Positions 1 to 40,336 of a stretch of DNA of 40,336 nucleotides are shown here, piece by piece. The DNA lies in IMG/VR virus record IMGVR_UViG_643348545_000005; one strand, given 5' to 3'. Position numbers and translations under genes: made by a program. The notes beneath the pieces are model-generated. The model searched no databases, had not been told where the DNA came from, and worked only from the letters and a program-made list of their open reading frames with translations. How positions within the stretch are numbered: the stretch's first letter is position 1; each line of letters starts with the position of its first letter. The stretch comes from a virus (Duplodnaviria > Heunggongvirae > Uroviricota > Caudoviricetes).

Positions 1-1293
<1,293 letters not shown>

Positions 1294-1317
1294 TACCCAA
1301 TTTTTCTGAATCTAAAA

Positions 1318-1337
1318 AGCGCCTGCGGGCGCTTTTC
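1318..1337 (+). terminator. Rho-independent terminator after serS
   Basis: GC-rich hairpin agcgcc-loop-ggcgct followed by a T-run, 25 nt after the serS stop. Confidence 0.6.
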
Positions 1338-1415
1338 GCATGAGGTTAATTAACTGAAAATAAAAGGGATTTATTTTCAGGTGTCCATATAATGCCCATC
1401 TTTGAAACAAAAAAA

Positions 1416-1448
1416 GCCCGCAGTTTTTACGCTGCGGGCTTTATTTTT
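1416..1448. terminator. Bidirectional hairpin terminator
   Basis: 8-bp stem gcccgcag/ctgcgggc flanked by an A-run upstream and a T-run downstream. Confidence 0.45.
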
Positions 1449-1840
1449 CTTTGTGACTTGCGTGTGAGGGTGCTACTTTCGGCCTTACCCTGACAACCGA
1501 TTGACGGGGGATTACTCCCCCGTCGCGGTTTCCTTACTGCTTACACTGTAAGAACGCCGCAAACTCCGCTCCCCAGATGTTCATCCGTATTTCACACAGC
1601 GAACCATGTAACATCCAGATGATGAGGATTGCCGTCACGCAGAACGTGATGGCCATAAGCGATTTTTGCGACATAGCGCTTGCTCCTTTGTTGGAGAGGC
1701 GCTAACCTGTCACTTGCTAAGGTTAGATGGTTAGGGCCTCGGGTTAACGTTTAAGTTGACTCGGGGCCTTTCCACATCCGGCCTTCAGGTAATCCTTCCA
1801 GCCGTCAGCCGAAAGGCACCCACGTGTAATCTACTGATTT
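1440..1840. repeat. hok/sok-like type I toxin-antitoxin locus, copy A (tandem with 1920-2320)
   Basis: About 400 bp segment that is roughly 80 percent identical by eye to 1920-2320; contains a small Hok-family ORF on the minus strand and a strong 3-prime hairpin (cgggggattactcccccg). Confidence 0.6.
1534..1674 (-). CDS. Hok/Gef-family small membrane toxin (46 aa), HokA-like
   Basis: My translation MSQKSLMAITFCVTAILIIWMLHGSLCEIRMNIWGAEFAAFLQCKQ has an N-terminal TM helix, the conserved SLCE-R cysteine motif and a C-terminal AAFL-C-K tail as in HokA. Below the ORF-track size cut-off. Confidence 0.6.
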   Translation of the reverse strand: MSQKSLMAITFCVTAILIIWMLHGSLCEIRMNIWGAEFAAFLQCKQ

Positions 1841-1919
1841 CCCTTTGTGCGCGCAATGCTCAGTGTTGAAACTGTTTAGGGGGAGGGCGGCAAAAAAGCC
1901 CGCATATTGCGGGCAAATA

Positions 1920-2320
1920 CGTCTGTAATCCAATGGAGAAAGGGGTGCCATATCGACTGCACCCGACAACCGGATAGCGGGGGCTTTCACCCCCGCTGCG
2001 GTTTCTTACTGTTTACACTGCAAGAACGCCGCAAATTCTGACCACATGATGTTAAGTCTGAACTCACACGGCGAACGGTGTATCATCCAGATGGCCAACA
2101 ACATGGTTAAGCATAAAATGCTCACGATGATCGTTTTTTGCGGCATAGCGCTTGACTCCTTTTACAGGGAGGCGCTAACCTTCCACTTGTCTAGGGTAGG
2201 AATGGTTAGGGCCTCGGGTTAAACAATATGTTTGACTCGGGGCCTTTCCACATCCGGCCTTCAGGTTTTCCTTCCAGCCGTCAGCCGAAAGGCACCCGCG
2301 CGTAATGTACTGGTTTTGAG
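1920..2320. repeat. hok/sok-like type I toxin-antitoxin locus, copy B
   Basis: Diverged tandem copy of 1440-1840 with its own Hok-like ORF and 3-prime hairpin (cgggggctttcacccccg); its right end lies inside the 3-prime end of the ogr ORF. Confidence 0.6.
2006..2146 (-). CDS. Hok/Gef-family small membrane toxin (46 aa), second copy
   Basis: My translation MPQKTIIVSILCLTMLLAIWMIHRSPCEFRLNIMWSEFAAFLQCKQ; same architecture as the copy A toxin. Confidence 0.55.
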   Translation of the reverse strand: MPQKTIIVSILCLTMLLAIWMIHRSPCEFRLNIMWSEFAAFLQCKQ

Positions 2321-2583
2321 GATATGCCGCAATCCTCCAGTTGTAGCGTTAACTGACTGCGTCCCTGATGGGATTTGCGCATTGTCTCCCGTGGAATATC
2401 TTTATCATGGAAGAGCAACTGAGGCTGGCCAATAATTCTGTGCACACTTTCCATTGTTGAAAATGTGGCGCTGCACTCAAGGTTATTGCACTGATAGTAT
2501 TTGTAGCGGATGGTGCCGGTATCATTGGCGGCTTTACTGGTACGGATCCGGGCAGATGCGCCGCAGAATGGACAATGAAACAT
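2281..2583 (-). CDS. ogr: Ogr/Delta late-gene transcriptional activator (zinc finger), with a C-terminal extension
   Basis: N-terminus MFHCPFCG...YYQCNNLECSATF carries the C4 zinc-finger of P2 Ogr; 100 aa versus about 72 aa for P2 Ogr because the ORF runs into the flanking repeat. Confidence 0.85.
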   Translation of the reverse strand: MFHCPFCGASARIRTSKAANDTGTIRYKYYQCNNLECSATFSTMESVHRIIGQPQLLFHDKDIPRETMRKSHQGRSQLTLQLEDCGISSKPVHYARVPFG

Positions 2584-15301: not shown

Positions 15302-17347
15302 TTATGCGGCGTTGCTGTTATTGATATCCACCGTCACATACTCAATCAGCACGGGGTAGGTGTCCTGGTTACTGGTGATATCCGTGATCAGCAGTTTGTC
15401 GTTATCCAGTCCTGCCGCCGGGCATTTCGCCAGATTAAAGGCCGCCTGGGTCTGACCGTTGATGACCGGTGTCACGCTGATGCTGTTATTTCCGGCAAAC
15501 CGGAACACCACGTTGTGCCAGTTATGATTAAATGCCCCGAAGGTTCCCAGTTTTGCATTCTGTTGTTTGTGCTGCATCAGATTCAGGTTTGCGCTGTCGC
15601 TCTGGATGAAGAAGGCGGCCAGCATATCGTTTCCTGCGCTGCCTTCCAGAACAACGTTTTCAGGTAGCTGAGAAACCGGCCAGTGCAGAGCCATGGCGAA
15701 GCGGTTTTCTGCCAGCTGAACACCTTCCGGGATTTTGAAACGAAAGGCAATTTCCCCGCCTTTCTGAAGTAATTCAGCTGCTTTACTTGCAGGCACATCG
15801 TGGGCGATTTTCCAGGCTGTTTGTTGCCCCTGGACTTTTTCCACTCGCATGGCTTTACCGCTCTCAGCAGCAGAGTCATTTACGACGGAGGCTTTTCCAT
15901 CTGCCCCTGTCCAGCCCTGTTCTTTCAGTTTCCCTTCCTGTGCGTCTGCGCGATAAGCGACGGCCGTTGTTCTTGCCGGTGATGACTGCGTACCTGCGCC
16001 CGGCTGAGGTGCAGGTGTGGAGGGCTGCGGGCTTTCCGTGGTGGTGCTGTCTGAACCGGCCGTGGCGGGAGGTATTGCGAGCACGCTGAACGGTGCGGGT
16101 GCACCTTTCAGGAAGGCGACGGTCTTCCCGGCATGCATCAGGATCGCCGTTGCCAGGCGGTCAGAAATAATGCCGCGGCGGGCCCATGAACTGAAATGCG
16201 TGGCGCGATCTGAAGAGGTCCAGTTTCCGTTACTACGGGATGCAGCACCGTAATAACCGGCTTCTGCCAGGTCAGGATCTTCGGCAGGCAGGTTTGTTGG
16301 CGTGTTAGCACCTTTCTCATCGGTCATCAGGGGCACAAAATAAATTTTTTGCGCTTCTTTGTTCTGATATGCACCGTAAACCACCGGGTACTGAGAGGTA
16401 TATTGTTGTTTCCAGATATAGGTGGTATCGCCGCAAATCCAGGGAACAAGTGATGCGTTGCCTCCGGTGCACTGTGCAGCATATGCGCTGAGATCTGCGC
16501 GGAACTGATTCACCATGTTCAGGAATAATTGCGGGTACTGTGCGTATGTTGCTGATTTCAGATCAAACTCTCCCAGCATCCAGACCACGGATAACAGGAC
16601 GTTTTTGGGGTTTTTATCCAGCGCGGCTTTTGTACGGGTAAGCAGATCGTTATACAGCGGTTTGCCGACGCCCCACAGGGATGATTCGGCCGTTGCTCCT
16701 GAAGATTCACTGAATGCCCCCTCTGCGCCGGAAGTAAACGCTGACCCTCCACGACAGCAAGGTACCAGGAGGATCCCTGCATTTTTCGGGATAAACGCCA
16801 GTAATTTTTTGGCAATATGTAAACCCTGTCCGACGCAGCCATACTGACCTTTTGACAGATCGGCGTTCGGATGATTAAGGCTGCTCATATCCTGTACATC
16901 ATGGAGACAGTGATCTGCCGGAATAATATCGTTATAGGTACATGCAGCGCCGCCCGGTGTCACCGTACTGCGACGCGCTAACTGTTTAATTCGTGGATCA
17001 GGACTGTCGAATGTATCCGGTAATGGCAGCCCCTCACCGTATGCCATGCCATTGGACTGACCAGCCAGTGGCACCACATAATAAAACTCTGGCTCAGTTG
17101 TGTGTCCAGTGTTGTATCCGTCGGTAGTGCCCGGTACGGGTTTTTCCTCGCCTTCTGGTACCGGAATGGCTGATGGCAGGTCTCTGTCAGTGACCAGTGC
17201 CTGCATCAGGTAAAATGGTGCTCCCGGCTCTGATGCTGAGACAGGTCCCCCAAGAAGTCCCCATCCTTCCCTGAGCATGGGCGCAAGTTTTTCGGCAAGT
17301 TCCTTGTTCGTCATTGCCGTCACAAGCTGATAATGTTTCGGTACCAT
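15302..17347 (-). CDS. NanS-p-like putative sialate O-acetylesterase (N-terminal DUF1737-like region, SGNH/GQSN esterase domain, Ser/Thr/Pro linker, C-terminal lectin-like domain)
   Basis: GQSN block (VVPLAGQSNGMAYGEG) and domain order resemble prophage NanS-p/YjhS esterases. Start moved to the ATG at 17347, which has a GGAG RBS. Confidence 0.55.
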   Translation of the reverse strand: MVPKHYQLVTAMTNKELAEKLAPMLREGWGLLGGPVSASEPGAPFYLMQALVTDRDLPSAIPVPEGEEKPVPGTTDGYNTGHTTEPEFYYVVPLAGQSNGMAYGEGLPLPDTFDSPDPRIKQLARRSTVTPGGAACTYNDIIPADHCLHDVQDMSSLNHPNADLSKGQYGCVGQGLHIAKKLLAFIPKNAGILLVPCCRGGSAFTSGAEGAFSESSGATAESSLWGVGKPLYNDLLTRTKAALDKNPKNVLLSVVWMLGEFDLKSATYAQYPQLFLNMVNQFRADLSAYAAQCTGGNASLVPWICGDTTYIWKQQYTSQYPVVYGAYQNKEAQKIYFVPLMTDEKGANTPTNLPAEDPDLAEAGYYGAASRSNGNWTSSDRATHFSSWARRGIISDRLATAILMHAGKTVAFLKGAPAPFSVLAIPPATAGSDSTTTESPQPSTPAPQPGAGTQSSPARTTAVAYRADAQEGKLKEQGWTGADGKASVVNDSAAESGKAMRVEKVQGQQTAWKIAHDVPASKAAELLQKGGEIAFRFKIPEGVQLAENRFAMALHWPVSQLPENVVLEGSAGNDMLAAFFIQSDSANLNLMQHKQQNAKLGTFGAFNHNWHNVVFRFAGNNSISVTPVINGQTQAAFNLAKCPAAGLDNDKLLITDITSNQDTYPVLIEYVTVDINNSNAA

Positions 17348-17357
17348 AGTGACTCCG

Positions 17358-17633
17358 TTATTTTTCATGAGTGTTCATTCGTGCTGTCCGCTGCCGCTCC
17401 AGCCCGGCAATGGCGGCTTTATCGGCATTACAACTGTCCAGGGCATCTACCAGTCGGTCTCCCCAGTCAGCCACATCAGCCCATATCATGTGTTGCGGCA
17501 GCACCGGTACCGGCGTCTGTCTGGTCAGACTTTCCGGCACGCTCCCGCAAATGACGCCGGTTTTCAGCGGCGCTGGCGTGTTGTTGCAGGCTGTCAGCAA
17601 CATCAGCAGGGGGAGAAGTGCGTGCGCACTCAT
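17358..17633 (-). CDS. lysC: o-spanin (Rz1/LysC-like outer-membrane lipoprotein)
   Basis: Signal peptide with lipobox (LLMLLTAC) when started at MSAHALL; embedded in the 3-prime part of the i-spanin gene in another frame. Confidence 0.55.
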   Translation of the reverse strand: MSAHALLPLLMLLTACNNTPAPLKTGVICGSVPESLTRQTPVPVLPQHMIWADVADWGDRLVDALDSCNADKAAIAGLERQRTARMNTHEK

Positions 17634-32731: not shown

Positions 32732-33069
32732 GGTGTGGCCTCTTTGCTAGTAAGTTGTGAAAACTCACCATCCAGAGCTGCGAAACTGTGGGTGGCGAGA
32801 CGTACGAGGTTCGCAGTACCGGCTAGCAAAGAACCCGGCCCGACCGAAGTCGGCCCCGTACGCCCCGCCATAATTCTGACGCGAAAAAGACGTGGCAATA
32901 CAGTACGCACAAAAAAACCGCTGGCGCGGTTGTGCGCTTTGCTAGTCGGCAGGCTGCGAAACCCGGCACCCGTTTTATGAGGTGCAGCGGAAATGTAACC
33001 CGACACGACGAGCGCTGGCAAGCGGTTTTTGTGTTGCGTGTTGATGTGGTTAGAATGTTGCGAATTAAT

Positions 33070-39343: not shown

Positions 39344-40336
39344 ATGTCGATTAAGCAACTCAAAGACGGGCGTTATAAGGTTGATGTAAGACCGCAAGGG
39401 ACGGAAGGAAAGCGGATCCGTAAGATTTTTACCCTGAAGTCAAAGGCACAGGAGTTTGAAAGGTATGTTTTGCAGAATTTCCACGATAAACCGTGGCAGG
39501 CCAAGCCAGCTGATCAGCGTCGGTTATCCGAACTGATAGATGCCTGGTGGGTGCTTGATGGCCGGAATCAGCCTTACGGGGATACTTACAGGGTCAGGCT
39601 GGAAAAAATAAACCGTGAGATGAGGGACCCCTGCGCCAGTGAGATGACGCGAAAGTTTATGCTCGGGTATCGTTCAGACAAATTACAGGCCGGATTAATG
39701 CCCTCCAGTGTTAATCGTGATTTGTGCGCCTTGTCTGCAATGTTTACCTCGCTGATTGATGCGGAGGTTTTCCATAACGAAAACCCGGTGCGTGGAATAC
39801 GTAAGCTCAAGGTCAGGAATACAGAAATGGCCTTTCTTTCAGATGATGAGATTGATCGGCTGCTTGAACGACTCGAGGGGGATGCGCGTCGTGTTGCTGT
39901 TCTGTGTCTTTCCACTGGCGCAAGGTGGGGGGAAGCAGCTGGCTTACGTGGTGAGCATATCGTTGGTAACCGCGTAATGTTCTTTAACACAAAGAATGGA
40001 AAATCCCGCGCGGTTCCTGTTTCTGATACGGTGCTTTCGTTGATAAAAACCCGAAAAACCGGGCTATTGTACCAGGCTGATTACATCCGTTTTCGGGATA
40101 TCCTTCAGGAGGTGAAACCGGATTTACCCAAAGGTCAGGCGACTCACGTTATGCGTCACACGTTCGCCACGCATTTCATGATGAACGGCGGAAATATCGT
40201 TACGTTACAGCGAATCCTTGGGCACACCACGATTCAACAAACGATGACGTATGCGCATTTTTCACCGGACTTTTTACAGGATGCGATTAGCTTTAATCCG
40301 CTGGCTGATAGTGTCCATAAACTGTCCATTGACTAG
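39344..40336 (+). CDS. int: Tyrosine integrase (P2 Int family)
   Basis: Similarity to P2 Int (MSIKQL.DGRY.VD.RP, LSTGARWGEAA, HxxRHTFATHFMMNGG, ILGHT...YAHF); GGAGGGG RBS; ends exactly at the window end. Confidence 0.9.
   Translation: MSIKQLKDGRYKVDVRPQGTEGKRIRKIFTLKSKAQEFERYVLQNFHDKPWQAKPADQRRLSELIDAWWVLDGRNQPYGDTYRVRLEKINREMRDPCASEMTRKFMLGYRSDKLQAGLMPSSVNRDLCALSAMFTSLIDAEVFHNENPVRGIRKLKVRNTEMAFLSDDEIDRLLERLEGDARRVAVLCLSTGARWGEAAGLRGEHIVGNRVMFFNTKNGKSRAVPVSDTVLSLIKTRKTGLLYQADYIRFRDILQEVKPDLPKGQATHVMRHTFATHFMMNGGNIVTLQRILGHTTIQQTMTYAHFSPDFLQDAISFNPLADSVHKLSID

Follow-up and report, generated by a model that had tools for sequence, protein, structure and literature searches.

What are the two imperfectly repeated segments just downstream of serS in IMG/VR record IMGVR_UViG_643348545_000005 (Caudoviricetes; 40,336 nt, referred to here in its entirety as the window), and do they belong to the Escherichia coli chromosome or to the phage? 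A preliminary description had proposed two tandem, diverged hok/sok-like type I toxin loci lying between serS and the prophage end. We conclude, with a probability of about 85%, that they form a two-unit array of hok/sok-type type I toxin-antitoxin (TA) cassettes, carried as accessory cargo at the ogr-proximal end of the prophage after the serS terminator. This identity is supported by Pfam matches to both encoded peptides, by sok-like matches in both leaders, by a predicted fold-back in both mRNAs, and by SokC-like hairpins on the opposite strand.

Two Tandem Units Encode Hok-Family Peptides

Alignment of the minus strand of 1400-1900 with that of 1870-2340 gave a mean column identity of 81% over ~470 aligned columns, in agreement with the ~80% first estimated, and a repeat search recovered four collinear direct-repeat families with a spacing of 472 to 476 bp. 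The repeats are therefore real, but the bounds initially drawn for them, 1440-1840 and 1920-2320, were slightly narrow. With promoter and terminator included, two head-to-tail units of ~473 bp each extend over ~1405-1870 (unit A) and ~1890-2345 (unit B). Each unit carries one open reading frame (ORF) for a 46-aa peptide:

1534-1674, minus strand: hok-A ORF, 46 aa, A-type, cluster 72 of the Hok catalogue considered below; MSQKSLMAITFCVTAILIIWMLHGSLCEIRMNIWGAEFAAFLQCKQ (Pfam, PHROG, RefSeq WP_000078909.1)
2006-2146, minus strand: hok-B ORF, 46 aa, B-type; MPQKTIIVSILCLTMLLAIWMIHRSPCEFRLNIMWSEFAAFLQCKQ (Pfam, PHROG, RefSeq WP_001135719.1)

The Hok/Gef character earlier ascribed to these ORFs was confirmed by Pfam HOK_GEF (PF01848), which matched hok-A with 30.3 bits and hok-B with 26.6 bits, both above the gathering score of 22 bits, and by PHROG 251 (E values of 8.6e-23 and 1.7e-18, respectively). 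The ORFs had been thought easy to miss, but RefSeq/PGAP annotates both as 'Hok/Gef family protein', and each exact peptide is found under the Hok/Gef name on about 1000 or more contigs. A Shine-Dalgarno (SD) sequence, GGAG, precedes hok-A at 1683-1686. Positions retained in >80% of 1264 Hok peptides, namely a hydrophobic N-terminal helix with C..T, an L-C-E motif and a later E, are represented in copy A by C12, T14, L26-C27-E28, and E37. Copy B has C12, T14, P26-C27-E28, and E37, its single deviation, Leu to Pro, being common to all B-type loci. The two peptides are identical at 27 of 46 residues (59%).

In direct comparison, the nearest named homolog was K-12 HokA (20 to 21 of 46 residues identical), while HokC was identical at 13 of 46. 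HokA also provided the best NCBIfam match (NF007290); however, scores of 34.1 and 36.6 bits against the equivalog cutoff of 89 bits mean that the window peptides are not HokA orthologs. Judged from their sequences, both ORFs encode Hok-family membrane peptides that are not orthologs of any named K-12 gene.

Both Units Have the Predicted RNA Architecture of hok/sok

RNA features were analyzed in 11 loci, comprising both window units and nine related units from phages P88, P88_4B11, TL-2011c, and VT2-Sakai and from E. coli AVS0151, KY172 (three units), and JE86-ST05. The hok and sok promoters were placed by conservation across these loci and not by a generic sigma-70 scan, the ends of Sok-A and Sok-B are predictions, and the transcripts folded were the putative full-length mRNAs, running from 1821 to 1405 (A) and from 2297 to 1890 (B). 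The following elements were assigned to unit A:

1828..1856, minus strand: hok-A promoter; -35 TTGCGC (1851-1856), 17-nt spacer, -10 TAGATT (1828-1833); conservation in 11 loci
1806..1821, minus strand: hok-A mRNA 5' end, tac-like, GGGUGCCUUUCGGCUG; predicted +1 at 1821; position 1 of the Rfam sok model, invariant in 11 loci
1715..1773, plus strand: predicted Sok-A antisense RNA, ~59 nt; 13-nt single-stranded 5' tail, 16-bp hairpin, and UUU; fold
1680..1708, plus strand: predicted sok-A promoter; -35 TTGCTC (1680-1685), 17-nt spacer, -10 TAACCT (1703-1708); conservation
1502..1525, minus strand: GC-rich hairpin of the 3' untranslated region, just past the stop; fold and compensatory pairs
1468..1486, minus strand: fbi-like 3' element (AAGGCCGAAAGUAGCACCC), pairing with the mRNA 5' end; minimum free energy (MFE) fold and helix count
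1405..1442, minus strand: hok-A mRNA terminator, rho-independent and bidirectional; stem 1413-1442 and T run from the terminator scan

The corresponding elements of unit B were:

2304..2332, minus strand: hok-B promoter; -35 TTGCGG (2327-2332), 17-nt spacer, -10 TACATT (2304-2309); inside the 3' end of the ogr ORF
2282..2297, minus strand: tac-like 5' end of the hok-B mRNA; shares sequence with the last 5 ogr codons (2284-2298) and the ogr stop codon
2188..2249, plus strand: predicted Sok-B antisense RNA, ~62 nt; fold, within the Rfam sok match
2152..2181, plus strand: predicted sok-B promoter; -35 TTGACT (2152-2157), 18-nt spacer, -10 TAACCT (2176-2181); placed as for sok-A
1975..1998, minus strand: GC-rich hairpin of the 3' untranslated region, just past the stop; fold and consensus alignment
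1943..1960, minus strand: fbi-like 3' element (GCAGUCGAUAUGGCACCC); MFE fold-back and helix count
1890..1914, minus strand: hok-B mRNA terminator; terminator scan, stem 1898-1914 plus T run

The Rfam sok model (RF01794) matched both leaders end to end from model position 1, at 1664-1821 (A; 42.0 bits, E = 8e-08) and 2135-2297 (B; 43.9 bits, E = 2.6e-08), and these spans contain the predicted Sok-A and Sok-B. Upstream contexts of the 11 loci are unrelated, and yet the hok promoter, TTGC(N2)-N17-TA(N)ATTA, is conserved among them and the mRNA start, GGGTGCCTTTCGGCTGA, is invariant. From this weak but conserved promoter an mRNA of ~410 nt is predicted. Conservation between units A and B is uneven, with 93% identity in the first 85 nt of the leader and 69.5% across the ORF nucleotides, as might be expected of an RNA-regulated locus.

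The full-length mRNAs are predicted to be highly structured (z = -8.9 for A and -7.0 for B). In both units the first ~15 nt (GGGUGCCUUUCGGC) are paired, in the MFE as well as the centroid structure, to a 3' element that immediately precedes the terminator, and this helix is 93% paired over the 11 loci compared with 27 to 50% for a slid partner. Such a 5'-3' tac/fbi fold-back is a hallmark of hok mRNAs (PMC9841398). The consensus fold instead adopts an alternative local 5' hairpin, corresponding to the tac-stem, in which columns 1-14 pair with 47-59. It also pairs the hok SD GGAG with an upstream CCUC(C/U) anti-SD in a local hairpin, consistent with a sequestered ribosome-binding site. The GC hairpin that had been noticed just past each stop is likewise part of the consensus fold. 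Compensatory changes were found in 16 of 87 consensus-fold pairs, and the GC hairpins show such changes (alignment columns 304-328).

On the plus strand, the -35 (TTGCTC or TTGACT) and -10 (TAACCT) elements of the predicted sok promoters overlap the hok ribosome-binding region, and AGGTTAGCGCC is invariant in the 11 loci. The predicted Sok RNAs of 59 to 62 nt each consist of a 13- to 15-nt single-stranded tail, a 16- to 18-bp hairpin, and UUU, fold with -30.1 kcal/mol (A; z = -5.2) and -30.3 kcal/mol (B; z = -5.0), and are complementary to nt ~48-107 of the hok leader. The Sok-A hairpin motif GGCCUCGGGUU...ACUCGGGGC also occurs in annotated K-12 SokC. Cognate duplexes of the Sok tails were calculated at -23.8 and -27.0 kcal/mol, against -10.2 and -12.4 kcal/mol for non-cognate duplexes, which suggests that the two modules would not cross-protect. 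With peptides from different Hok clusters and diverged Sok tails, the units probably work as two independent modules.

The stem at 1413-1442 is a perfect bidirectional hairpin that could also stop plus-strand read-through from the serS side. Weak Rfam matches to Thr_leader, trpB, and similar families in 1290-2400 all fell on this stem and were rejected as terminator look-alikes.

The 46-aa Subfamily Lacks a mok Leader Frame

In the R1 paradigm, a 70-codon mok leader starting 58 nt upstream of hok must be translated, and mutations of the mok start codon abolish toxicity (PMC9841398). The preliminary description had called for a search for the overlapping mok frame. We found no ORF in any frame that starts upstream and reads past the hok ATG in either copy, even when CTG, ATT, ATC, and ATA were allowed as starts, and a TAG lies in frame 9 codons upstream of each hok ATG. 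Seven of the 11 related loci likewise had no overlapping mok-like ORF, and the ORFs in the remaining loci were not conserved. Absence of mok characterizes the whole 46-aa subfamily and does not reflect damage at this locus. We rejected a 3-codon mini-ORF (GUG-NNN-GGU-UAG) as a candidate for a minimal mok: in the Sakai and TL-2011c units its GUG reads GUA, and the sok -10 on the opposite strand accounts for its conserved bases.

In several other respects the window units resemble R1 hok/sok. They share a small Hok toxin and, by prediction, a stable, highly folded mRNA of ~400 nt with a tac/fbi fold-back, an alternative 5' hairpin, and a sequestered SD, together with a putative short antisense Sok that has a single-stranded 5' tail, a hairpin, and a promoter inside the leader. 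The window peptides are identical to R1 Hok at only ~14 to 15 of 46 residues. With K-12 SokC (59 nt) the predicted Sok RNAs have in common the GGCCUCGGGUU...ACUCGGGGCUUU hairpin and a Sok 5' end 41 to 49 nt upstream of the hok ATG. K-12 hokC has an in-frame mokC extension, where the window units have the in-frame TAG.

Both Units Lie inside a P2-like Prophage

To assign the units to chromosome or phage, window positions 1294-2340 were compared with 5426 complete E. coli genomes. The flanking features are:

1-1293, plus strand: serS, which opens the window and is followed by its terminator
1313..1336, plus strand: serS terminator and the last bases in common with prophage-free E. coli; genome comparison, empty site
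1337..1404, no strand: phage-side att arm between the junction and unit A; absent from empty sites, ~80% similar by eye to AVS0151
2281..2583, minus strand: ogr/Delta-type late-gene activator, 100 aa, the context gene at the prophage end; Pfam Ogr_Delta (57.4 bits), RefSeq

Matches to the query were found in 5424 of the 5426 genomes, most of them covering only query bases 1-43 (window 1294-1336, the serS terminator), and in 53 the match extended over 80% or more of 1294-2340. In a prophage-free strain, serS and dmsA are separated by a plain spacer without hok, and this spacer departs from the window right after ...gcgggcgctttt. This comparison of empty and occupied sites places the chromosome/prophage junction (attR side) at 1336/1337, and the adjoining stretch 1337-1404 is homologous to the same stretch in AVS0151, which has another serS-integrated P2-like prophage. 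The prophage spans 1337 to past the window end, with the integrase gene stop at 40336. In a RefSeq-annotated genome of 99.2% identity, ogr is followed by genes for late control D, tail sheath, and tail tube. The junction, the Ogr_Delta domain, this gene order, and the same position of the units in P88-type phages mark them as cargo of a P2-like (Peduoviridae) prophage. Both units therefore lie inside the prophage rather than between serS and its end. As to which copy is chromosomal, a question left to the prophage-free serS flank, the departure of the serS-dmsA spacer at 1336/1337 indicates that neither is, and that both are terminal cargo between ogr and attR.

A repeat search detected no att-core repeat within the window, which ends at the integrase stop codon and leaves attL outside. 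When 19 kb of the prophage were searched against sequenced phages, no close relative was found, the best matches covering no more than 5% of the query at ~74 to 80% identity.

The genome of STEC2018-607 is 99% identical to window 1294-2340. Its near-identical prophage is ~3 kb shorter than that of the window, and on the integrase side it borders not on dmsA but on a truncated DUF2138 gene, yfaT, and an alpha-2-macroglobulin gene. On that side the serS-terminator core was not seen again, and this genome could not confirm the att core. Its flanks suggest either a hybrid element or an inversion of chromosomal DNA between two prophages.

The ogr ORF encodes 100 aa here, compared with 86 aa in P88-type prophages. 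The Ogr protein of P2 has 72 aa. Since the terminator scan found no terminator between ogr and hok-B, read-through from ogr into the hok-B unit is possible.

The ogr-Proximal Site Holds One to Three Units

Copy number at the ogr-proximal end varies, from one unit in AVS0151 and the P88-type phages to two in the window and in 53 complete E. coli genomes and three in KY172. P88, P88_4B11, and AVS0151 each carry a single A-type unit directly after ogr, in the two phages close to the tail genes as well, and unit A is 87 to 90% identical to the P88-type units. The three units of KY172 are all B-type, with 88 to 94% identity to copy B, and the terminator and promoter junction between them is conserved with the A/B junction of the window. 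Tandem units also occur in two IMG/VR prophage contigs, while no INPHARED phage record contains the tandem pair. On the strength of these alignments, the ogr-proximal site appears to behave as an expandable cassette array.

The KY172 units (JNEC-KY172, locus L008, 2568-3985) are in tandem at a spacing of 472 to 473 bp, at the same serS-proximal prophage end. In JE86-ST05 (locus L009, 2415-2895), a B-type hok unit has an rpmE (L31) paralog and a TraG-like conjugation gene as neighbors and apparently resides in an integrative conjugative element, not in a prophage.

A recent preprint (Escalera-Maurer et al., bioRxiv, 2025-26; 10.1101/2025.08.07.668861) catalogued 1264 Hok peptides in 61 clusters. 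The exact copy A peptide is in its supplement and is identical at 43 of 46 residues to the cloned representative 72_1621. Copy B is identical at 34 of 46 residues (~74%) to the SPCE-bearing 82_1289 from cluster 82. Cluster 72 representatives equal the 46-aa peptides of AVS0151 and Sakai, and such 46-aa units are also present in phages P88, P88_4B11, TL-2011c, and VT2-Sakai. Representatives of clusters 72 and 82 were among those cloned for toxicity assays, in which 42 of 45 constructs were toxic (10.1101/2025.08.07.668861); the three non-toxic constructs are other sequences, neither 72_1621 nor 82_1289. According to the same study, islets of two to six copies account for 10% of Hok genes, and in Escherichia 13.5% of the chromosomal hok genes are in islets; members of an islet come from a single 60%-identity cluster in 98% of cases, and 3.5% of hok-bearing phages have two copies (10.1101/2025.08.07.668861). 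The window pair, 59% identical and combining an A-type with a B-type unit (clusters 72 and 82), falls into a small heterotypic minority. It is already annotated and catalogued, and its mixed composition adds a nuance but no discovery. What sets the array apart is limited to its combination of cluster types, its lack of mok, and the sequence shared by ogr and the hok-B 5' end.

Relation to hokW-sokW of Sp5

Experiments have shown the hokW-sokW module of the Stx2 prophage Sp5 to be a type I TA system, dependent on RNase III and Hfq, that assists the release of phage (Takada et al. 2021, PMC8621323). Its published sokW primers contain a TTGCCT hexamer followed after 17 nt by TAACC, and the mutagenesis primer for the promoter-less variant alters TAACC (PMC8621323). 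In our own reading of these primers, TTGCCT would be the sokW -35 and TAACC the sokW -10, at a position equivalent to the sok -10 of the window units. HokW itself differs from the window Hoks in being a 51-aa HokC-like peptide (MKQQKAM...DYESEK). 'MokW-like' labels on phage matches had suggested that the A-type unit is hokW of Sp5, an identification rejected because the published primers show hokW to be that different 51-aa locus.

An intact but unannotated 46-aa hok unit (MSQKSLITVTICMTVIFTIWMLHGSLCEFRLNLWGAEFAAFLQCKQ) is located between lom and orf66 in VT2-Sakai/Sp5 (locus L010, ~800-1190). Because this unit is separate from the published 51-aa hokW, Sp5 holds two different hok modules.

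Proposed Mechanism and Alternative Readings

By sequence and prediction, each unit is autonomous: besides the toxin ORF it has a folded mRNA that closes 5' on 3' and sequesters the SD and, convergent with hok, a predicted antisense RNA gene. The R1 paradigm covers 3' processing to an active truncated mRNA and RNase III cleavage of the Sok-hok duplex (PMC9841398). By analogy, the full-length mRNA would be inert until slow 3' trimming frees the fold-back and activates it, and the unstable Sok would then pair with the activated mRNA, whose duplex RNase III would cut. Once the supply of Sok stops, Hok would be made, depolarize the inner membrane, and kill the cell. Because mok is absent, Sok probably acts on hok directly, via decay or the adjacent SD hairpin, and not through translational coupling.

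Several points weigh against identifying the array as hok/sok-type cassettes. Neither copy has a mok ORF, and in hok-B the Leu that >80% of Hok peptides carry in the LCE motif is replaced by Pro (SPCE). The Rfam sok matches in both leaders came from an E-value search of 1290-2400 and scored below the gathering score of 59 bits, and a whole-window run at gathering scores returned no hok or sok family, its sole matches being C4 and isrK in another part of the window. On its 5' side the fold-back helix is invariant, so that there is no two-sided covariation, the changes being one-sided (3' side) and wobble-compatible. Both hok and sok promoters are below the threshold of a generic sigma-70 scan. 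For these exact alleles, toxicity is inferred, as are the transcript ends, their processing, and the dependence on RNase III.

The array may serve to retain the prophage through post-segregational killing, to exclude other phages, or to help with lysis after induction. An alternative that concerns role and leaves identity untouched holds that the array is chiefly an anti-phage (abortive infection) device, or one that times lysis and is wired to late transcription. Help with lysis after induction has been demonstrated for the hokW-sokW module of Sp5 (PMC8621323), yet that module is the distinct 51-aa HokC-like locus, and we consider a chiefly anti-phage or lysis-timing role somewhat unlikely.

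A more far-reaching proposal would make the 46-aa prophage Hoks mok-independent, the two units orthogonal modules (clusters 72 and 82), and hok-B wired to ogr, with read-through tying toxin release to the lytic program. Under it, Sok would pair at least 25 nt upstream of the hok SD hairpin and control the toxin without a leader peptide, and read-through on induction would yield 5'-extended hok-B transcripts unable to form the fold-back. The proposed wiring rests on the ogr ORF ending inside the hok-B tac-like element and on the hok-B promoter lying inside ogr. Taken as a whole, this proposal strikes us as distinctly improbable.

Decay of one or both units into non-functional hok/sok relics would be compatible with the missing mok frame, with SPCE in place of SLCE in copy B, and with the sub-gathering Rfam scores, and many chromosomal hok loci of K-12 are indeed inactivated, mokA, a pseudogene beside IS150, being an example. 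However, both ORFs are intact, and about 1000 or more contigs carry each exact peptide. Both units and the nine other loci have kept the promoter, the tac-like and fbi-like elements, the SD and Sok hairpins, and the terminator, and the missing mok and the SPCE motif are subfamily-wide and not lesions of this copy. The SPCE-bearing 82_1289 was itself cloned for toxicity testing and is not among the listed non-toxic constructs. Decay is accordingly a very unlikely explanation. Least credible of all is that one copy is a resident chromosomal hok beside serS and the other phage-brought, the pair marking the integration site: phages that integrate into a gene often bring along a duplicate of its end, and no other gene is flanked by these two units, but empty sites refute this, their plain serS-dmsA spacer containing no hok and having in common with the window only the 43 bases after the serS stop, the serS-proximal unit A is of the type found next to ogr in virion-derived phage genomes, and site-specific integration at the core would not set two units side by side.

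Other Features of the Prophage

Full-length Rfam matches above gathering scores were obtained for C4 antisense RNA (82.8 bits; 32788-32875, minus strand) and isrK (64.3 bits; 32911-32985, minus strand), which are direct neighbors in the early/immunity region of this P2-like prophage. The C4/isrK pair is normally tied to P1/P7-type antirepressor control and to Salmonella Gifsy-type islands. At ~16138-17096, within a 688-aa ORF (15302-17368, minus strand), the window has 74 to 80% nucleotide identity to NanS/SASA-family carbohydrate esterase genes of Stx-converting phages. This NanS/SASA-type esterase region is an unusual passenger for a P2-like prophage.

Implications

Apart from correct annotation, little follows from the finding that the short hok genes and their RNAs at this locus are phage cargo and not host genes. 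With one to three hok/sok cassettes, the serS-proximal end of this prophage family forms a small hotspot. A 46-aa subfamily without the mok leader frame that the textbook mechanism requires may be of interest to specialists in type I TA systems, and heterotypic arrays with diverged Sok tails would offer a natural test of antitoxin specificity.

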